Origin: Escherichia coli
GTDB lineage: Bacteria > Pseudomonadota > Gammaproteobacteria > Enterobacterales > Enterobacteriaceae
NCBI RefSeq assembly: GCF_003790525.1
Contig: NZ_CP033635.1
Direction: 5' to 3' (one strand)
DNA: 64,000 nt
A program made the position numbers and the translations under genes. The notes under the pieces are model-generated. The model did no database searches, was not told where the DNA came from, and saw nothing but the letters and a program-made list of their open reading frames with translations. Position 1 is the first letter of the stretch, and each line of letters opens with the position of its first letter. Positions 4,840 through 59,983 of the stretch are shown one piece after another.

Positions 4840-7116
4840 ATGCTCAATCAAGAACTGGAACTCAGTTTAAATATGGCTTTCGCCAGAGCGCGCGAGCACC
4901 GTCATGAGTTTATGACCGTCGAGCACTTGTTACTGGCGCTGCTCAGTAACCCATCTGCCCGGGAGGCGCTGGAAGCGTGTTCTGTGGATTTGGTTGCGCT
5001 CCGTCAGGAACTGGAAGCCTTTATTGAACAAACCACACCCGTTCTGCCTGCCAGTGAAGAGGAGCGCGACACACAGCCGACGCTGAGTTTTCAGCGTGTA
5101 CTGCAACGTGCGGTCTTCCATGTCCAGTCCTCCGGTCGCAATGAGGTTACCGGTGCAAACGTTCTGGTCGCTATTTTTAGCGAACAGGAGTCGCAGGCGG
5201 CATATCTGTTGCGTAAACATGAAGTCAGCCGTCTCGATGTGGTGAACTTTATCTCTCATGGCACGCGTAAAGACGAGCCGACACAGTCTTCTGATCCTGG
5301 CAGCCAGCCAAACAGCGAAGAACAAGCTGGTGGGGAGGAACGTATGGAGAATTTCACGACGAACCTGAATCAGCTTGCGCGAGTGGGCGGAATCGACCCA
5401 CTGATTGGTCGTGAGAAGGAGCTGGAGCGTGCTATTCAGGTTCTCTGCCGTCGCCGTAAAAACAACCCGCTGCTGGTGGGGGAATCTGGTGTCGGTAAAA
5501 CCGCGATTGCGGAAGGTCTTGCCTGGCGAATTGTTCAGGGCGATGTGCCGGAAGTGATGGCTGACTGTACGATTTACTCTCTCGATATCGGTTCTCTGTT
5601 AGCGGGCACTAAATATCGCGGCGACTTTGAAAAACGTTTTAAAGCGTTGCTCAAGCAGCTGGAGCAGGACACTAACAGCATCCTGTTTATTGATGAGATC
5701 CACACCATTATCGGTGCGGGTGCAGCGTCTGGTGGTCAGGTCGATGCGGCTAACCTGATCAAACCGTTGCTCTCCAGCGGTAAAATTCGCGTAATTGGTT
5801 CGACAACCTATCAGGAGTTCAGCAACATTTTCGAGAAAGACCGTGCTCTGGCGCGTCGCTTCCAGAAAATTGATATTACTGAACCGTCGATCGAAGAAAC
5901 TGTTCAAATCATCAATGGCCTGAAACCGAAGTACGAAGCGCACCATGACGTGCGTTATACCGCAAAAGCGGTGCGTGCAGCGGTAGAGCTGGCGGTGAAA
6001 TACATTAACGATCGTCATCTGCCGGATAAAGCCATTGACGTTATCGACGAAGCGGGCGCTCGCGCACGCCTGATGCCGGTAAGCAAACGCAAGAAAACCG
6101 TTAATGTGGCGGATATTGAGTCTGTGGTGGCCCGTATTGCGCGCATTCCAGAGAAGAGTGTTTCGCAGAGTGACCGCGATACCCTGAAAAACCTCGGCGA
6201 TCGCCTGAAAATGCTGGTCTTCGGTCAGGATAAAGCCATTGAGGCGCTGACTGAAGCCATTAAGATGGCGCGTGCAGGTTTAGGTCACGAACATAAACCG
6301 GTCGGTTCGTTCCTGTTTGCCGGTCCTACCGGGGTCGGGAAAACAGAGGTGACGGTACAGCTTTCGAAAGCTTTGGGCATTGAGCTTCTGCGCTTTGATA
6401 TGTCCGAGTATATGGAACGCCATACCGTCAGCCGTCTGATTGGTGCGCCTCCGGGATACGTTGGTTTTGATCAGGGGGGGCTGCTGACCGATGCGGTCAT
6501 CAAGCATCCGCACGCGGTACTGCTGCTGGACGAAATCGAGAAAGCGCATCCGGACGTGTTCAATATTCTGTTGCAGGTGATGGACAACGGTACGCTGACC
6601 GATAACAACGGACGCAAAGCGGACTTCCGTAACGTGGTATTGGTGATGACCACCAACGCTGGGGTACGAGAAACTGAGCGTAAATCGATTGGTCTTATCC
6701 ATCAGGACAACAGCACCGATGCGATGGAAGAGATCAAGAAGATCTTTACGCCGGAGTTTCGTAACCGTCTCGACAACATTATCTGGTTCGATCATCTCTC
6801 CACCGACGTGATCCATCAGGTAGTGGATAAATTCATCGTCGAGTTGCAGGTTCAGCTGGATCAGAAAGGTGTTTCTCTGGAAGTGAGCCAGGAAGCGCGT
6901 AACTGGCTGGCCGAGAAAGGTTACGACCGGGCAATGGGCGCACGTCCGATGGCGCGTGTCATCCAGGACAACCTGAAAAAACCGCTCGCCAACGAACTGT
7001 TGTTTGGTTCGCTGGTGGACGGCGGTCAGGTGACGGTTGCGCTGGATAAAGAGAAAAATGAGCTGACTTACGGATTCCAGAGTGCACAAAAGCACAAGGC
7101 GGAAGCAGCGCATTAA
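4840..7116 (+). CDS. clpA: ATP-dependent Clp protease ATP-binding subunit ClpA
   Basis: Two AAA+ modules with Walker A GESGVGKT and GPTGVGKT; start [10 protein letters not shown] inside the track ORF. Confidence 0.95.
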
Positions 7117-21042: not shown

Positions 21043-22356
<1,314 letters not shown>

Positions 22357-22374
22357 TACCCAATTTTTCTGAAT

Positions 22375-22405
22375 CTAAAAAGCGCCTGCGGGCGCTTTTG
22401 CATGG
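22375..22405 (+). terminator. serS terminator hairpin containing the prophage attL core (22385-22399)
   Basis: aaaaagcgcctgcgggcgctttt; CCTGCGGGCGCTTTT repeated at 59774-59788. Confidence 0.7.
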
Positions 22406-22554
22406 TACTTAACTATATGAAAATAAATGGATTTTATTTTCATGTGTCCAGATAATGTCCATCTTTGAAGAAAAAAGTCCACAATACTGACGTTGTGGGC
22501 TTTTCTTTTTCCTGATGGTGTCGTGCCGTCAGTGCAACGAACCAAAGGGAGGGG

Positions 22555-22782
22555 ATGTTGATGTTGTTTTCCCTTCGCACCAGCTTTAAAGCCACTCTTG
22601 TTAACGATGATGGTACGCCACGGATCACGGCCGAGGTGAGGAATGTGACACCTGATGATATCGGGAAGGTGGCGGAACTTGTCAGGGATGTTTTTGGTAC
22701 TCCTTCCGGTACCTGCCGTTCAGACTCTGCGGCCAGGGTTGACAGGCAGGATGTTAACGCCGGGTGGCTTACGCGCCTCTGA
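22555..22782 (+). CDS. Hypothetical 75-aa protein at the attL end
   Basis: Strong SD GGGAGGGG before the ATG; preceded by a terminator hairpin. Confidence 0.35.
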   Translation: MLMLFSLRTSFKATLVNDDGTPRITAEVRNVTPDDIGKVAELVRDVFGTPSGTCRSDSAARVDRQDVNAGWLTRL

Positions 22783-22932
22783 ATGATGATGCCCTCACTG
22801 GTGAGGGTGACAAAAAAGCCCTCTCAATGGCGGGCAAATCTGGTTTTTTGTTTTGTCTCTACAGGGAAAGGGCGCCATATCGGCCCACCCCAACAACCGG
22901 ATAGCGGGGAATTTCTCCCCCGCTGCGGTTTC

Positions 22933-23073
22933 TTACGGTTTACACTGCAAGAACGCCGCAAAACGCGCTCCCCAGATATCAAAGCTGAATTCACATAACG
23001 AATCGTGGACCATCCAGATGACCAGGGTTATTGTCAGGCATAAAATGCCAACAATAATCGTTTTTTGCGGTAT
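22933..23073 (-). pseudogene. Hok/Gef-family toxin paralog with ATA in the start position
   Basis: Frame gives IPQKTIIVGILCLTITLVIWMVHDSLCEFSFDIWGARFAAFLQCKP; same length and context as the intact copy at 24938-25078. Confidence 0.45.
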
Positions 23074-23173
23074 AGCGCTTGCTCCTTTTACAAAGAGGCG
23101 CTAACCTTCCACTTGTCACGGTAGGAAGGGTCAGGCCTCGGTTAAACACAGATGTTTTCCGGGGCCTTTCCAC
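22991..23173 (-). CDS. Mok-like reading frame overlapping the hok-like ORF
   Basis: ORF overlaps the hok paralog in another frame; paralog of 24945-25178. Confidence 0.3.
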   Translation of the reverse strand: MERPRKTSVFNRGLTLPTVTSGRLAPLCKRSKRYTAKNDYCWHFMPDNNPGHLDGPRFVM

Positions 23174-23283
23174 ATCCGGCCTTCAGGTTTTCCCTCCGGC
23201 CATCAGCCGAAAGGCACCCGTTTCTTTTTGTTGCGGCAATATTTCAGGTGTCAGTTGGGGTGGGCTGTATCTTGTCTGATGCA

Positions 23284-23382
23284 TAAAAAAATGCCCGCGC
23301 TTTGGCGGGCAAAAGACAAGACTTTTCGTTTGTATATCATGGATAATGGACACCCCTTCCTGTTGTCAGGTGGCAGGCACCC
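23284..23382 (-). ncRNA. Candidate small RNA or leader unit X1
   Basis: Minus-strand -35 TTGAGA (23412-23417), 17-bp spacer, -10 TAGATT (23389-23394); ends at hairpin plus U-run. Confidence 0.3.
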
Positions 23383-23486
23383 GTGGTTAATCTACTGTTT
23401 TTGTGCTTTTGTCTCAACCCTGAAGTTTTCATGGAAAATCAGGGTTGCTTCATATGTGCCAGGAAGGTGCGGCTATGATAACTGCC

Positions 23487-23578
23487 AAAAAAAGCCCGCT
23501 TTCCGGCGGGCAAAACAGCAATGTGAGTTGTCTGTCATTGATACTGGACAGCCTTCCTGTTGTCAGGTGGAAGGTACC
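23487..23578 (-). ncRNA. Candidate small RNA or leader unit X2
   Basis: TTGAGA-N17-TAGATT on the minus strand, then terminator. Confidence 0.3.
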
Positions 23579-23930
23579 CGTGGTTAATCTACTGTCTTTG
23601 TGCTTTTGTCTCAACCCTGAAGTTTTCATGGAAAATCAGGGTTGCTTCATGTGAACCAGGAAGGTGAGGCGATGGTAACCGCCAAAAAAATGCCCGCTTT
23701 CCGGCGGGCAAAACAAGGAAGTACGGATCATGTATTATTGATTACGAGGCATTCCACCATGCCCACGTTTAATTTAGCTAGTTTTCATTTTATTCACAAT
23801 ATAGTTACTTATCATATTTATGAACAAAACTGTAATTTCATCTATAGGTATAAGTGATTTGCATTAACATGTTTCTTCTGTATTGCTGTTGGTTTTCCGA
23901 TGCTGATATTTATGATACATTCAGGGGCAA

Positions 23931-24002
23931 ATGAGGTTGTTCCACAGAAACGATGTTGAGATATTTCTGCTCCAGAAAGGACAAGCTAAAAAAATAAAGT
24001 GA
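23931..24002 (+). pseudogene. Disrupted paralog (Y1) of the small protein at 25756-25971
   Basis: MRLFHRNDVEIF... then premature stop; conserved AT-rich upstream region. Confidence 0.3.
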
Positions 24003-24135
24003 AATTATGATATGTCAGGGATGTTCAGGCATGTCAGTGTCTTATTAATAAACTCGTTGCTGCTGTAATAACACCAAAAAAATCAAAGCATAATCTGCAT
24101 GTTGTTCCTGATGACCCAATAACCACAAAAGAATA

Positions 24136-24228
24136 AAAAAATGCCCGCTTTCCGGCGGGCAAAACAGCAATGTGAGTTGTCTGTCATTGATACTGGACAC
24201 CCTTCCTGTTGTCAGGTGGAAGGCACCC
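24136..24228 (-). ncRNA. Candidate small RNA or leader unit X3
   Basis: TTGAGC-N17-TAGATT on the minus strand, then terminator. Confidence 0.3.
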
Positions 24229-24586
24229 GTGGTTAATCTACTGTCTTTGTGCTTTTGGCTCAACCCTGAAGTTTTCATGGAAAATCAGGGCTGCTTTGTG
24301 TGCGCCAGGGAAGGCGCCTCGATGGCAGGCGCAAAAAAAATGCCCGTGCTTCGGCGGGCAAAATAAGGAAGTACAGGTTACATGTTATTGATAAAGTAGC
24401 ATTGCTCTGTCCGTCTTTAATCTAACGAGTTTTGAGTTTTTTCACAATATTGTTACCTGTCATGTTATAGATGAAACTGCAATTTCATCTATAGGTATAA
24501 ATGATTTGTATTAATGTGTGTCCACTGTTTGTCTGCTTTCTGGTTTTCAGTTGACTGTGTTTCTGATGAATTCAGGAGGTTGTCTT

Positions 24587-24685
24587 ATGAGGCTGTTCCA
24601 CAGAAACGATATTGAGATTGAACTGCATTTCTCCTCCGGTGAGGATAAGGTTAAATCATTGTTGATGAAAAAAACAAAGATTTAA
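24587..24685 (+). pseudogene. Truncated paralog (Y2) of the small protein at 25756-25971
   Basis: MRLFHRNDIEIELHFSSGEDKVKS then divergence and stop; SD AGGAGG. Confidence 0.3.
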
Positions 24686-24815
24686 TTTATTGATATAAAG
24701 GATTTGTATCAGCGTATGTCCACGCAGTGACCACATTTTCGAGAGGTAGAGTAAGCCCGCAACATTGCGGGCTTTGTCTTATAGTCTGATCACTGTTTCA
24801 AGTCGGTGAGGACAC

Positions 24816-24852
24816 CAAAAAGAAAACCCGCAGTTTTTATGCTGCGGGTTTG
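24816..24852 (-). terminator. Intrinsic terminator downstream of the hok-like gene
   Basis: Minus strand aaacccgcagcataaaaactgcgggttt plus T-run. Confidence 0.6.
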
Positions 24853-24937
24853 TTGTTCATGTCTGTGAGATAGGGTGCCTTATCGACCTTACCCTGGCAA
24901 CCGATTGACGGGGGATTGCTCCCCCGTCGCGGTTTCC

Positions 24938-25078
24938 TTACTTCTTACATTGTAAGAACGCCGCAAACTCCGCTCCCCAGAAGCTCATCCGTATTTCGCA
25001 CAGCGAACCGTGCAATATCCAGATGATGAGGATTGCCGTCACGCAGAACGTGATGGCCGTAAGCGATTTTTGCGACAT
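24938..25078 (-). CDS. Hok/Gef-family type I toxin homolog (46 aa)
   Basis: MSQKSLTAITFCVTAILIIWILHGSLCEIRMSFWGAEFAAFLQCKK; TM helix plus SLCEIR...AAF as in Hok; SD AAGGAG. Confidence 0.65.
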   Translation of the reverse strand: MSQKSLTAITFCVTAILIIWILHGSLCEIRMSFWGAEFAAFLQCKK

Positions 25079-25178
25079 AGCACTTGCTCCTTTTCCGGAG
25101 AGGCGCTAACCTTTCACTTGTCAAGGTAATGCGGTTAGGGCCTCGGTTAAACAGAAATGTTTTCCGGGGCCTTTCCAC
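24945..25178 (-). CDS. Mok-like reading frame overlapping the hok-like ORF
   Basis: ORF track; overlaps the hok homolog in another frame. Confidence 0.3.
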   Translation of the reverse strand: MERPRKTFLFNRGPNRITLTSERLAPLRKRSKCYVAKIAYGHHVLRDGNPHHLDIARFAVRNTDELLGSGVCGVLTM

Positions 25179-25314
25179 ATCCGGCCTTCAGGTTTTCCCT
25201 CCGGCCATCAGCCGAAAGGCACCCGCGCGTAATTTAACTGTTTCTTTTTGTTGCGGCAATATTTCAGGTGTCAGTTGGGGTGGGCTGTATCTTGTCTGAT
25301 GCATAAAAAAATGC

Positions 25315-25400
25315 CCGCGCTTCGGCGGGCAAAAAACAAGACTTTTCGTTTGTATATCATGGATAATGGACACCCTTCCTGTTGTCAGGGGGAGGTACCC
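25315..25400 (-). ncRNA. Candidate small RNA or leader unit X4
   Basis: -35 and -10 hexamers kept (TTGAGC, TAGATT) while the 17-bp spacer differs from X1-X3. Confidence 0.3.
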
Positions 25401-25755
25401 GTAGCTAATCTACTCACTTTGTGCCCGCAGCTCAACCCTGAAGTTTTCATGGAAAATCAGGGCTGCTTTGTGTGCGCCAGGGAAGGCGCCTCGATGGCAG
25501 GCGCAAAAAAAATGCCCGCTCTCCGGCGGGCAAAACAATGATCTACGTCACATTATATTGATAACCGGGCATTCCTCCATGCCCATTTTTAATTTAGCCA
25601 TTTTTCATTTTGTTCACAATATAGTTATCTATCATATTCATGAATGAAATTATAATTTCATCTATAGGTATAAATGATTTGTGTTAATATGTTTCTCCTG
25701 TCTAACTGTTTTCTCATTTTTCGATACTAGTATTTCTGATATATTCAGGGGGCGT

Positions 25756-25971
25756 ATGAGATTGTTCCGAAGAAACGATATTGAGATTGAACTGCATTTC
25801 TCCTCCGGTGAGGATAAGGTTAAATCAATAAAGGTGAAACTAAGACATGCCCGGGATGTTCAGGCGTGTCAGTGTCTTATTGATGAACTCGTTGCTGCCG
25901 GAGGAACGCCAAAAAAACAAAAATATAATCTGCACGTGGTTCCTGATGACCCCATAACCACAAAAGAATAA
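25756..25971 (+). CDS. Hypothetical small protein (72 aa), intact member of the three-copy 'Y' family
   Basis: MRLFRRNDIEIELHFSSGEDKVKS...; SD AGGGGG; AT-rich upstream region. Confidence 0.45.
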   Translation: MRLFRRNDIEIELHFSSGEDKVKSIKVKLRHARDVQACQCLIDELVAAGGTPKKQKYNLHVVPDDPITTKE

Positions 25972-26113
25972 AAAAATGCCCGCTTTCCGGCGGGCAAAAA
26001 ACAATTTAGGTCATATTTCATCATGGATAATTAAATACTTGCCCGTGGTTGCGGGAAAGTATCTGCCGTTAATCTACTTGCCTTATGATGTCCTCTCAAC
26101 CTGATTATTGTTC

Positions 26114-26365
26114 TTAAATATCAAGATTAATCTGAGTATTCCCCCTGTGAGATCCCGGAAAATCTTCCCACGGTATCCGCTCTGTACCCTGCGGCGACGG
26201 GGCGCGTTTTGATGTGAATTTGTTAAAACCCTCCAGTGTGGTAAAGCCGATCCCGCATTCGAGGTTATTGCACTGGTAGTACTTCAGGCGAACTGTGCCT
26301 GAATCATTTTCATTGCGACTGGTGCGGATACGTGCGGATGCACCGCATAGGGGACAACGGAACAT
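26114..26365 (-). CDS. ogr: Ogr/Delta-type zinc-finger late-gene activator
   Basis: MFRCPLCGASARIRTSR...YYQCNNLEC resembles P2 Ogr C2C2 finger. Confidence 0.85.
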   Translation of the reverse strand: MFRCPLCGASARIRTSRNENDSGTVRLKYYQCNNLECGIGFTTLEGFNKFTSKRAPSPQGTERIPWEDFPGSHRGNTQINLDI

Positions 26366-26408
26366 GGCTTCTCCTTATCTGGCTGAGTGGAGATGGCTCA
26401 TTTTAATT

Positions 26409-27500
26409 TTATCCGCCTGAATCTGCTATCCATTCGGGGATTTTCGCTTCCAGCTCCAGTTGTGTGGTGAAGCCGCTTTCATCTATGATGTGCTCCACCC
26501 TGGCAATAATCCAGTCCTGATTGTCCACCTCGCTTTTAAAACCTGTTACCCTGCCGTGCATTTCGGGATACAGGTCGGCACGACCCCGTGCCAGAGTGAT
26601 GGAGAATGCCGCTGCTCCCCGCTGTAACTCCTGCCACTTTGCCGCAGCTGCACGTCGTGCGGTTTCTTCATTCTGGTAAGTCCTGCGCAGAACGTAGACG
26701 TTCCCTTCCGCGCCTTCCATGTAATCACCCTCCCGGCTGCTGCTCTTCTCCTGTTTCTGTTTCCCGGCTTCCCTGCGTCGCTTCACGTTCACTTTTTTCT
26801 TGTGCCCGAACTTCAGATCGAGCCAGTGCGCCCGGACCCCCGTATACGCATCACGGTCAGCAATGCGAAAGCGGTGACTGTCGCCGCTGCTGCGGGTAAT
26901 GGCGAACGAAGGCAGGGCTCTTCCGTCCGGCCCGGTTCCGCCACCCGGCAGAATGAATAACAGGCTGCCGTTTTTTACGGTGGCAATCGCACCCAGCATT
27001 TCAGCCATGCGGGTCAGGAAGGATATATCGCTCTCTTCGGTCTGGTCAGCGTGGTCAATTTCGATATCCATGAGGATTTCGCTTATCTGTGTCTTCAGGC
27101 CGTAGCGGTGAGCGATGGCTGACACAACCTGTTTTACGGTCACGTCGTGCCAGGATACCTCCCGCCTCACGTTGAACTCTTCCCGAAAATCTGCGCTGCT
27201 GGCGGTGATGATCAGTTTATCTGGAGGTCCTTCCCACGCAACCTCATCAACGACGTAGGTGCCCTTGTTAACCAGTGATTCTCCTCGCCAGCCAATCATC
27301 ACTCTCAGGCGTGCGCCACGTGGTGGCAACTGTAACTGCCCGTCCGTATCGTCAAGGGTGAGGGTGACGCGGTCTGCCTCAAAGGCCCGGTTATCCGTCA
27401 GGGTCAGCGTCATGAGTCGCTCTGTGAGGTTTGCCAGTGTGTTGTTGTTGATGGTGATGTCGATATCCGGTGACGGAACGGTAACTGACAGCTCTTTCAT
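26409..27500 (-). CDS. D: P2 gpD-like tail protein
   Basis: TLTDNRAFEADRVTLTLDDTDGQ...SWHDVT...REGDYMEGAEGNV resemble P2 D; start at MKELSVT with SD AGGAGA. Confidence 0.85.
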   Translation of the reverse strand: MKELSVTVPSPDIDITINNNTLANLTERLMTLTLTDNRAFEADRVTLTLDDTDGQLQLPPRGARLRVMIGWRGESLVNKGTYVVDEVAWEGPPDKLIITASSADFREEFNVRREVSWHDVTVKQVVSAIAHRYGLKTQISEILMDIEIDHADQTEESDISFLTRMAEMLGAIATVKNGSLLFILPGGGTGPDGRALPSFAITRSSGDSHRFRIADRDAYTGVRAHWLDLKFGHKKKVNVKRRREAGKQKQEKSSSREGDYMEGAEGNVYVLRRTYQNEETARRAAAAKWQELQRGAAAFSITLARGRADLYPEMHGRVTGFKSEVDNQDWIIARVEHIIDESGFTTQLELEAKIPEWIADSGG

Positions 27501-54020: not shown

Positions 54021-54245
54021 CTCTGTAGTTGCAAGTTTTGAAAACTCACCATCCAGAGGTTGCAATTCTGGGTGGCGAGACGTACAGGGTTGCAACCACC
54101 GGCAACTACAGAAACCGGCCCGACCGAAGTCGGCCCCATACGCCCCGCCATAATTCTGGCGCGAAAAAGACGTGGCGATACGGTACGCACAAAAAAACCG
54201 CTGGCGCGGTTGTGCGCTGTAGTTGTCAGCGGGGGTTGCAATCCC
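54021..54245. repeat. Cluster of GTTGCAA(C)/TAGTTGCAA motifs in a 320-bp intergenic region
   Basis: Six copies in both orientations at about 54026, 54057, 54087, 54101, 54219 and 54233. Confidence 0.45.
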
Positions 54246-54332
54246 GGCACCCGTTTTATGAGGTGCAGCGGAAATGTAACCTGACTGATTGCGGCATGGC
54301 AAGCGGTTTTTTTGTGTGTGCATAGTGGTTAC

Positions 54333-58682: not shown

Positions 58683-59687
58683 GTGCTGATCATGTCGATT
58701 AAGCAACTCAAAGACGGACGTTATCAGGTTGATGTAAGGCCTCAGGGGGCGGGAGGAAGGCGGATTCGTAAGATTTTCACCCTGAAATCAAAGGCGCAGG
58801 AATTCGAAAGATACGTTCTTCAGAATTTCCACAATAACCCGTGGCAGGCAAGGCCCGCCGATCAACGGCGGTTATCAGAACTGATTGAGGTGTGGTGGAT
58901 GCTTGATGGTCGTAATCAGGCATATGGTGATACCTACAGAACCAGACTGGAGAAGGTGATACGTGAAATGGGGGACCCGCGCGCCAGCCAGATGACACGA
59001 AAATTCGTGATTGAGTATCGCTCGGATAAGTTGCAGGCGGGACTGATGCCGTCCAGTATCAATCGCGACCTGTGCGCCTTATCTGCGATGTTTTCGTTGT
59101 TAATTGACGCGGAGGTTTATCATAACGAAAACCCTGTGCGCGGAATACGTAAACTCAAGGTTCAGAATACAGAAATGGCCTTTCTTTCAGATGACGAGAT
59201 TGATCGCCTTCTGAAACGGCTTGAGGGTGATGCACGACGCATTGCCATTCTGTGCCTTTCGACCGGGGCCAGATGGAAAGAGGCGTCAACGCTTCGCGGG
59301 GAACACATCGTGGGTAACAGGGTGACGTTCTTTAACACAAAGAACGGGAAATCGCGCTCGGTTCCTGTAGCTGATTCCGTTGTGCCGTTAATTAAAACCC
59401 GCCGGACCGGCCTGTTATATCAGGTTGATTATCTCAGTTTCAGGGAGATCCTTCAGGAGGTGAAGCCCGACTTACCCAAAGGGCAGGCCACGCATGTCAT
59501 GCGGCACACGTTCGCCACGCATTTCATGATGAACGGCGGGAACATCGTCACGTTGCAGAGGATCCTGGGTCACGCCACGATTCAGCAAACGATGACGTAT
59601 GCGCATTTTTCACCGGACTTTTTACAGGATGCGATCAGCTTTAATCCGCTGGCTGAAAGTGTCCATAAACTGTCCATCGACCAGTAA
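58683..59687 (+). CDS. int: Tyrosine integrase (P2 Int-like)
   Basis: KQLKDGRYQVDVRP...AILCLSTGARW...HVMRHTFATHF...LGHATIQQTMTYAHF close to P2 Int. Confidence 0.9.
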   Translation: MLIMSIKQLKDGRYQVDVRPQGAGGRRIRKIFTLKSKAQEFERYVLQNFHNNPWQARPADQRRLSELIEVWWMLDGRNQAYGDTYRTRLEKVIREMGDPRASQMTRKFVIEYRSDKLQAGLMPSSINRDLCALSAMFSLLIDAEVYHNENPVRGIRKLKVQNTEMAFLSDDEIDRLLKRLEGDARRIAILCLSTGARWKEASTLRGEHIVGNRVTFFNTKNGKSRSVPVADSVVPLIKTRRTGLLYQVDYLSFREILQEVKPDLPKGQATHVMRHTFATHFMMNGGNIVTLQRILGHATIQQTMTYAHFSPDFLQDAISFNPLAESVHKLSIDQ

Positions 59688-59773
59688 TTATTTGTGATAA
59701 TTTGCTCCCCTTGTTTTTGTTTACTTATTGAAAAATAAGGAAATCAGCAAGAGGAGTAAGTACCGTTAAATCT

Positions 59774-59788
59774 CCTGCGGGCGCTTTT
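59774..59788. other. attR core CCTGCGGGCGCTTTT
   Basis: Identical 15-mer at 22385-22399. Confidence 0.7.
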
Positions 59789-59983
59789 TTTGTCTCCCTT
59801 TGATACCGAACAATAATTACTCCTCACTTACACGTAATACTACTTTCGAGTGAAAATCTACCTATCTCTTTGATTTTCAAATTATTCGATATATACAAGC
59901 CTATATAGCGACCTGCTATAGAAATAATTACACAATACGGTTTGTTACTGGAATCAATCGTGAGCAAGCTTGAGTGAGCCATT

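Follow-up and report, generated by a model that had tools for sequence, protein, structure and literature searches.

What do the short promoter–terminator units do that recur on the minus strand in the cargo region of a P2-family prophage of Escherichia coli? The window analyzed here, a stretch of 64,000 nucleotides of the E. coli chromosome, holds five such units, designated X, in a 3.7-kb cargo region that runs from the gene ogr to the attachment site of an ~37-kb prophage. A first-pass annotation had named four of them, within 23284-25400, and had suggested that their promoters are under selection and that two of them serve as leaders or attenuators of hok-like loci. All four stand where they were placed, but the count was incomplete: the fifth copy, X5, lies outside that interval, the end of which also cuts off the X4 promoter (25407-25435). 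On the basis of the evidence presented below, the X units are read, with a probability of roughly 0.55, as functional, trans-acting, Hfq-type base-pairing small RNA (sRNA) genes.

Promoters, RNA folds, and 3′ modules of the X units

On the minus strand, every X unit reads TTGAGA or TTGAGC, exactly 17 bp, and TAGATT; it closes with a GC hairpin of 6-7 bp, which ends after a further ~95-100 nt, and seven U residues. This layout was confirmed by minus-strand reading, a repeat finder, a promoter/terminator scan, and alignment. In the coordinates below, the −35 hexamer and the last base of the U-run are the two ends of each unit.

23285-23417, minus strand: X1, subtype a; −35 TTGAGA at 23417-23412, −10 TAGATT at 23394-23389, predicted start ~23384-23382, 5′ stem-loop, seed-like AUUAUCCAUGAU, terminator stem at 23311-23292 with seven U.
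23486-23614, minus strand: X2, subtype b; −35 TTGAGA at 23614-23609, −10 at 23591-23586, 5′ stem-loop, CA-rich second hairpin CAAUG-ACAGACAACUCA-CAUUG, terminator at 23511-23494.
24135-24263, minus strand: X3, subtype b; −35 TTGAGC at 24263-24258, −10 at 24240-24235, terminator at 24161-24142, in overlap with the 3′ end of a decayed copy, on the plus strand, of a 71-amino-acid open reading frame (ORF71).
25305-25435, minus strand: X4, subtype a with a diverged spacer; −35 TTGAGC at 25435-25430, −10 at 25412-25407, terminator at 25331-25312.
25970-26099, minus strand: X5, the most diverged copy, with the subtype a seed; −35 TTGAGA at 26099-26094, −10 at 26076-26071, terminator at 25996-25977.

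The two subtypes differ in their middle segment. Subtype b (X2, X3, and X6, the last found in sister prophages) carries the CAAUG/CAUUG hairpin there, whereas X1, X4, and X5 have in common a 12-nt island, AUUAUCCAUGAU, that is identical in X5 and X1/X4 despite diverged flanks. The 3′ half of X4 and the 65 nt downstream of it are 99% identical to the X1 equivalent. The X5 body is only ~60% identical to the other copies, yet both of its hexamers are intact; its −35 element begins 15 nt past the ogr stop codon, and its terminator abuts the stop codon of the intact ORF71. All five X copies are intact, as compared to one of two hok loci and one of three ORF71 copies in the same array, and both extra variants from sister prophages are intact as well.

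In a promoter scan, the X promoters match 9 of 12 consensus positions with optimal spacing in 5/5 copies. Since the copies are paralogues, their recurrence is not a question of chance, and the meaningful statistic is the pattern of conservation. Relative to X2, X4 differs at 7/17 spacer and 1/12 hexamer positions and X5 at 8/17 spacer positions, while X4 and X5 differ from each other at 9/17. When X4 and X5 are taken together against X2 as the reference, 1/24 hexamer positions differ versus 15/34 spacer positions (Fisher p=0.0008). The claim that X4 keeps both hexamers and the 17-bp spacing around a diverged spacer therefore holds, and the case for promoter constraint becomes stronger because X5 also keeps its hexamers while its spacer diverges. 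The hexamer/spacer pattern indicates constraint on the function of these predicted sigma-70-type promoters, as had been proposed.

The six X RNAs (X1-X5 and X6) fold individually into the same 5′ stem-loop and terminator, with z-scores of −1.2 to −3.3. From 5′ to 3′, the predicted elements are a bipartite stem-loop in which the 5′ terminus itself is paired, the unpaired motif UAUC(A/C)AUGA, the variable segment, UUUU, and the terminator. X5 builds its stem-loop from other sequence, with AGAUACUU.../...AAGUAUUU in place of GGGUGCC.../...GGUGUCC and CCCG/CGGG in place of CCUG/CAGG. When X5 is left out of the covariance model, the model still recovers it at 52.6 bits, and it also detects the Y units described below at 35-45 bits. 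The model alignment has 98.8% of its cells paired and six pairs with changes on both sides, a result that 0/500 shuffles reach; slid controls are paired at 26-48%. The 5′ stem-loop is thus kept via compensatory changes, which supports the treatment of X as RNA units in the first-pass annotation. The remark made there that no reading frame is common to the copies is likewise borne out. A small protein encoded in X was considered and rejected: an ATG is kept in UAUCNAUGA, yet the frames differ by subtype and run through the terminator.

An Hfq-dependent sRNA usually consists of a 5′ structure, an exposed pairing region, a stretch rich in U, and a terminator that ends in a long U-tail. The X units have this layout, which is a published criterion. 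Their 3′ module, which consists of an intact terminator, seven U, and UUUU immediately 5′ of the hairpin, is present in all copies; a module of this kind is reportedly the Hfq-binding one described by Otaka in 2011 and Ishikawa in 2012.

One and the same terminator is present nine times in the array, and it is also carried by a second set of minus-strand units, designated Y.

23684-23799, minus strand: Y1; TTGTGA-17-TAAATT, short 5′ hairpin, UAAUCAAUAA motif, same terminator as X.
24334-24447, minus strand: Y2; as Y1, but with −10 TAGATT and an altered 5′ hairpin.
25506-25619, minus strand: Y3; as Y1, divergent from the intact ORF71, with GGAGGA as the 5′ hairpin loop.

The Y units, which are always divergent from ORF71, have their architecture and 3′ module in common with X, and the 17-bp geometry and TA(G/A)ATT are common to X, Y, and hok; they are probably a sister sRNA family. 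Of note, two IMG/VR contigs carry an unrelated unit of ~130 nt with a very similar terminator, TTTTGCCCGCCTTTGAGCGGGCATTTTTT (L116, ~2294-2450; L117, ~5750-5900), which may be another phage sRNA.

X1-X4 are also preceded by an identical dyad, CCCTGATTTTCCATGAAAACTTCAGGG, on the minus strand, abutting the −35 element.

23418-23444, minus strand: dyad before X1.
23615-23641, minus strand: dyad before X2.
24264-24290, minus strand: dyad before X3.
25436-25462, minus strand: dyad before X4.

No further copy of the dyad occurs in the window; at X5 it is absent and ogr coding sequence stands in its place. A phage-wide operator was rejected, the dyad being restricted to X1-X4. In one sister prophage, both arms of the dyad are lengthened together (TTTTTC-CAT-GAAAAA), and the element could act as an UP-like A/T tract, an operator, or an RNA hairpin. 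The region upstream of X1-X4 was considered as a possible relic of another ogr 3′ end, to which it bears a weak similarity (FPGxH).

Kinship of the X units with hok

Two hok loci lie in the array, each downstream of an X unit.

24803-25259, minus strand: hok-2, intact; own promoter TTGCCG-17-TAAATT at 25259-25231, Hok open reading frame at 25078-24938, terminator at 24851-24824.
22790-23240, minus strand: hok-1 remnant, a pseudogene; a 15-bp deletion takes the −10 element, and the start codon is changed from ATG to ATA.

The hok-2 frame encodes 46 amino acids (PHROG 251, E 8.5e-22), and Hok profiles match only this frame, 25078-24938. At the 5′ end of the hok-2 locus, GGGUGCCUU (tac) is complementary to a 3′ AAGGCACCC (fbi) near 24880-24872. 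In hok mRNA, the tac element pairs with the region just downstream, forming a metastable hairpin (PMC9841398). The 46-codon frame of hok-1 is still open, and its terminator is a hybrid with an X-type hairpin (TTTGCCCGCC...). Matches to the Rfam sok model are sub-threshold and fall solely inside the two hok loci.

The relation between X and hok was examined against 77 contigs of related phages, in which Ogr has 70-72% identity. Right after ogr, 73/77 of these have TTGCCG-17 bp-TAGATT-ACGCGCG-GGGTGCCTTTCGGCTGATGG..., i.e., the hok promoter and 5′ end with no X before it, and X5 occupies the exact position of that promoter. A hidden Markov model (HMM) of the hok 5′ end, built from the relatives only, finds both hok loci and then, in register, X3, X1, and X2 (E 0.0035, 0.017, and 0.049, respectively); a hok HMM covers just 24803-25260 and 22790-23240. 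When the 5′ halves of X1-3 are aligned to the hok-2 5′ end, 0/300 dinucleotide shuffles reach the score. Conversely, when an HMM of the X 5′ half was run against 561 kb of related loci, 70/71 matches fell on the hok promoter. The similarity extends over the end of the spacer, the −10 element, the start region, and the hairpin of ~35 nt. Taken singly, X4 and X5 show no significant similarity to hok, and the X 3′ half shows none (17-264 of 300 shuffles reach the score). The X units contain no Hok/Gef frame, Mok frame, Sok gene, or 3′ fbi box. An internally deleted hok was rejected as the origin of X, the 3′ half being without hok similarity.

Judged from these comparisons, X and hok mRNA have homologous promoters, and the 5′ stem-loop of X is the homologue of the hok 5′ hairpin. 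Because only the 5′ half is hok-like, an X unit is a hok promoter and 5′ hairpin joined to another short body and a terminator that Y shares.

Does this kinship extend to hok regulation? X1 and X4 had been described as lying directly upstream of the hok-like loci; they do lie 45-65 nt upstream of hok-1 and hok-2, but hok-1 is a pseudogene. As leaders or attenuators, they would act through transcription from the X promoter that reads through the hairpin under some condition. The junction between the X 3′ half and the hok 5′ end is 99% identical at both places, and hok-1 is without a −10 element of its own, such that any hok-1 transcription would need X1; however, hok-1 is also without a start codon. 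For its part, hok-2 has a complete promoter in a layout identical to that of 73 related phages without X, and a 5′ extension would destroy the pairing of the tac 5′ end with the fbi 3′ end, on which hok regulation depends (PMC9841398). The X terminators are strong (seven GC-rich pairs and seven U), and the folds offer no alternative antiterminator pairing. X2 and X3 are orphan copies, as first noted, with no hok downstream, and so is X5; in the sister prophages, the equivalent unit X1′ is followed by convergent genes or hicAB. Because of the hok-2 promoter, the strong terminators, the hok-less X2, X3, and X5, and the sister arrays without hok, the proposed leader or attenuator role is regarded as highly improbable, and the link of X to hok is an evolutionary one.

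An action of the X RNAs on hok/sok, as Sok decoys or tac/fbi competitors employing their hok-like 5′ end, is scarcely credible either. The fbi box in the hok 3′ region is complementary to CGGGUGCCU, a sequence that X1 and X3 have in common with the 5′ end of hok, and the apex of the X stem-loop resembles the hok leader hairpin near the predicted Sok 5′ end. However, shuffled controls do as well as the duplexes predicted for X with Sok and with fbi. In addition, the tac-like sequence, which the X stem-loop buries, varies (GGGUACC in X2, X4, and X6; AGAUACU in X5), and sister prophages have X units where hok is absent.

Proposed function and its rivals

The X units are proposed to be paralogous, self-contained sRNA genes (“morons”) of a P2-family cargo array, in which the toxin part of hok would have been replaced by a short body and the terminator shared with Y. 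The RNAs would be made constitutively in the lysogen, be bound by Hfq via the 3′ module, and base pair in trans through the exposed middle segment, which would come in exchangeable versions. What the analysis itself shows is the anatomy and paralogy of the units, their pattern of conservation and the covariation of their structure, their homology to hok and independence from it, and their distribution; transcription, Hfq binding, action in trans, and any partnership with GcvB are inferred. For subtype a, the target expected from AUUAUCCAUGAU is AUCAUGGAUAAU, possibly in a start codon region. For subtype b, the R1 seed of the host sRNA GcvB could be a pairing partner of the CA-rich hairpin, in the manner of the prophage sponge AgvB.

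The GcvB sequence employed was verified by a 100% match in 5425 genomes and by the Rfam GcvB model (199 bits). The predicted duplex of X2/3 with GcvB R1 has an energy of −23.0 kcal/mol, which 16/2000 shuffles reach, and that of X6 −20.9 kcal/mol (29/2000); the AgvB consensus, as a positive control, gives −19.4 kcal/mol (25/2000). X1 and X5 give no signal with GcvB R1, and the exact CACAACA motif is absent. X2/X3 as a GcvB partner is a testable lead from modeling rather than a result. Two other roles were tried and rejected. As trans antitoxins of ORF71, X and Y have only 7-9 nt matches to its mRNA. As a RyhB mimic on the sodB start region, X2/3 reaches −13.0 kcal/mol (222/1000 shuffles) as compared to −20.9 kcal/mol (4/1000) for the RyhB consensus. 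A broader scheme, in which X and Y are modular sRNA cassettes that arose by exaptation of a toxin promoter and 5′ hairpin and swap segments at the shared terminator, with X2/X3/X6 as a GcvB sponge convergent with AgvB, is put forward as a speculative and rather doubtful proposal. In it, the hok-type promoter, the stem-loop that sequesters the 5′ end, and the Hfq-type terminator would form a constant scaffold for expression and stability, and two unrelated phage families would independently have come to disarm one host regulator.

X occurs in 30/5426 complete E. coli genomes, many of them from poultry, and in three IMG/VR contigs of the same lineage; strains 135, F11, and NRZ14408 are among the carriers. 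A phage collection and a plasmid collection yielded no match. Pattern scans gave 16 matches in metagenomes and seven in 100,044 species genomes, all attributable to chance and, in the latter set, none enterobacterial; a scan of IMG/VR for the shared-terminator pattern added only unrelated units. No Rfam family reaches threshold over 22000-27500, and the searchable literature yielded neither a description of the family nor transcriptomes of strains that carry it. X is an undescribed, narrowly distributed family of putative sRNA genes among the known prophage cargo sRNA genes.

Several observations weigh against an sRNA function. The X start sites are predicted from the −10 element alone. The structure alignment contains 11 distinct sequences and was fitted to the model; only seven of the distinct sequences are X, and the both-side changes trace mainly to one split, that of X5 from the rest. 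The best Rfam matches, those of the X3 3′ half to RyhB (24 bits, threshold 55) and AgvB (23.2 bits, threshold 56), are mostly terminator. The candidate GcvB-pairing segment of X2/X3, ACAGACAACUCACA, is in part sequestered in a hairpin stem, and the GcvB energies are in silico, composition-controlled values for a GU-rich target and one of several hypotheses tried. In the 64-kb window, no X target of at least 12 nt exists on a sensible strand, a 13-nt match in the integrase gene int being same-sense. Finally, the spread is narrow, within one rare prophage lineage; the array holds junk, namely, a pseudo-hok and degraded ORFs; and recent duplication or mosaic recombination could keep the X features intact without much selection.

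A rival possibility is that the X units are non-functional debris. Illegitimate or homologous recombination would have joined hok fragments, made up of the promoter and 5′ hairpin, to a terminator held in common, and rebuilding of the array would have multiplied them; promoters and hairpins would look intact only on account of the copies being young or homogenized by gene conversion. The hok homology of the X 5′ half, the presence of a pseudo-hok and two degraded ORF71 copies in the same array, and the very narrow distribution all fit such an origin, as do the nine terminator copies, which would be recombination sites, and the 99% identity of the X1/X4 3′ halves and downstream spacer, which points to recent conversion or duplication. 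However, X5 is ~40% diverged from X1-4 and has nonetheless kept hexamers, spacing, a compensated stem-loop, the 12-nt island, and the terminator. Moreover, all seven X variants are intact while neighboring genes decayed, and three integration sites have the core array X5-ORF71-Y-X6-X1′ without any change. Debris is considered an unlikely explanation, although one to be taken seriously.

It is also improbable that X serves its convergent neighbors, as a cis-antisense RNA and/or a boundary element for the 3′ ends of cargo genes (ORF71 at X5/X3; hicB or a hypothetical gene, ORF73, at X1′). This would account for the X5 terminator abutting the ORF71 stop codon, for the junction of the ORF71 3′ end and the X terminator being a conserved repeat (88%), and for the end of X1′ lying one base from the hicB 3′ end, and convergent sRNA/moron pairs are known in lambdoid prophages (PMC4104026). 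However, within the window no gene converges on X1, X2, or X4, and on the opposite strand the hairpin is without a U-run and hence not a bidirectional terminator. Control of neighbors also leaves the conserved 5′ stem-loop and the seed-like island unexplained.

Prophage setting and known systems

The prophage lies between serS (21064-22356) and the dmsA side, and its insertion site is the 3′ end (terminator) of the sRNA gene STnc130, next to serS, with ~15 nt duplicated. The features that frame the cargo array are as follows.

22385-22399 and 59774-59788: attachment-core repeat of 15 nt, at the outer edge of the cargo array; the second copy lies inside STnc130.
59759-59893: STnc130, with a partial STnc130 match at 22379-22399.
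58683-59687: integrase gene.
26114-26365, minus strand: ogr, an ogr/Delta-type late activator gene, the last ordinary phage gene on this side and the inner edge of the cargo array.
25756-25971, plus strand: intact ORF71 (WP_001236182.1), convergent with X5 and divergent from Y3.

The promoter region of ORF71 is palindromic (25627-25678), and degraded copies of the frame lie at about 23930-24150 and 24586-24670, such that one of three is intact. The protein is hydrophilic; its sole match is PHROG 14142, of unknown function, with none in Pfam, NCBIfam, or PADLOC.

The same prophage lineage occupies three chromosomal sites, serS/STnc130, copA, and ihfA, and some genomes carry two such prophages. 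The core array ogr-X5-ORF71-Y-X6-X1′ is the same at all three, while the terminal cargo differs: in the copA and ihfA sister prophages (loci compared: L112 and L113 at 6007-6607, L085, and L111), X1′ is followed by the convergent ORF73 or, at ihfA, by hicAB, and there is no hok. In the window, an unannotated ORF of 75 amino acids (22555-22782, plus strand) adjoins the attachment site, convergent with hok-1; it has 85% identity to WP_029490443.1, a protein annotated at the corresponding place of the copA-site sister prophage. In the early region of the prophage, a C4 antisense RNA (54068-54155, 80 bits) lies beside IsrK (54191-54266, 60 bits) on the minus strand, both above the Rfam threshold. 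The pair suggests that this P2-like genome has a control module of antisense RNAs of the P1/Gifsy type.

If expressed and active, the X units would bring a P2-family member to the small number of prophage sRNA families known to rewire post-transcriptional control in the host, and they would illustrate a route for the birth of sRNA genes, namely, from the promoter and 5′ hairpin that once belonged to a type I toxin mRNA. Sponging of GcvB, if it occurs, would constitute an independent convergence with AgvB of Shiga-toxin-type phages on the control of amino-acid and peptide uptake, with relevance to gut colonization by the E. coli lineages, of poultry and humans, in which this prophage is found. 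If inert, the units would still be a clean example of how attachment-site-adjacent cargo arrays are rebuilt from promoter–terminator modules.

Three known systems invite comparison. X resembles RyhB-type Hfq-dependent sRNAs in its three-part layout and in a 10-nt identity, CUCACAUUGC, within the weak RyhB match (24 bits); it differs in scoring below the 55-bit threshold and in that a RyhB-like action on sodB is not supported. With hok/sok, X shares the TTGnnn-17-TA[G/A]ATT promoter and homologous first ~35 transcribed nucleotides, a hairpin that sequesters the 5′ end. In contrast to hok/sok, X has no Hok or Mok frame, Sok gene, or fbi box, and its transcript is predicted to end after ~95 nt.

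The closest parallel in organization is with prophage moron sRNAs, in which a conserved 3′ part is combined with a variable pairing part (PMC4104026), and in particular with the AgvB/AsxR anti-sRNA family of lambdoid prophages (51-60 nt, downstream of PR′; Tree et al. 2014, PMC4104026; Rfam RF02702). Like AgvB and AsxR, the X units are found in the cargo region of a prophage with their own promoter and intrinsic terminator, in several copies per genome, and often convergent with a cargo gene, and they join a conserved scaffold to an exchangeable pairing segment. X2/X3/X6 additionally resemble AgvB in having a CA-rich hairpin loop followed by the terminator; in silico, the GcvB R1 pairing predicted for them is as strong as that of the AgvB consensus. 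X is nevertheless not a member of the AgvB family (23.2 bits for X3 versus the 56-bit threshold). It is longer, at ~95-100 nt, and has its variable part in the middle and a conserved 5′ end; it is located in the interval from ogr to the attachment site of a P2-family phage, and its promoter and 5′ hairpin derive from hok.

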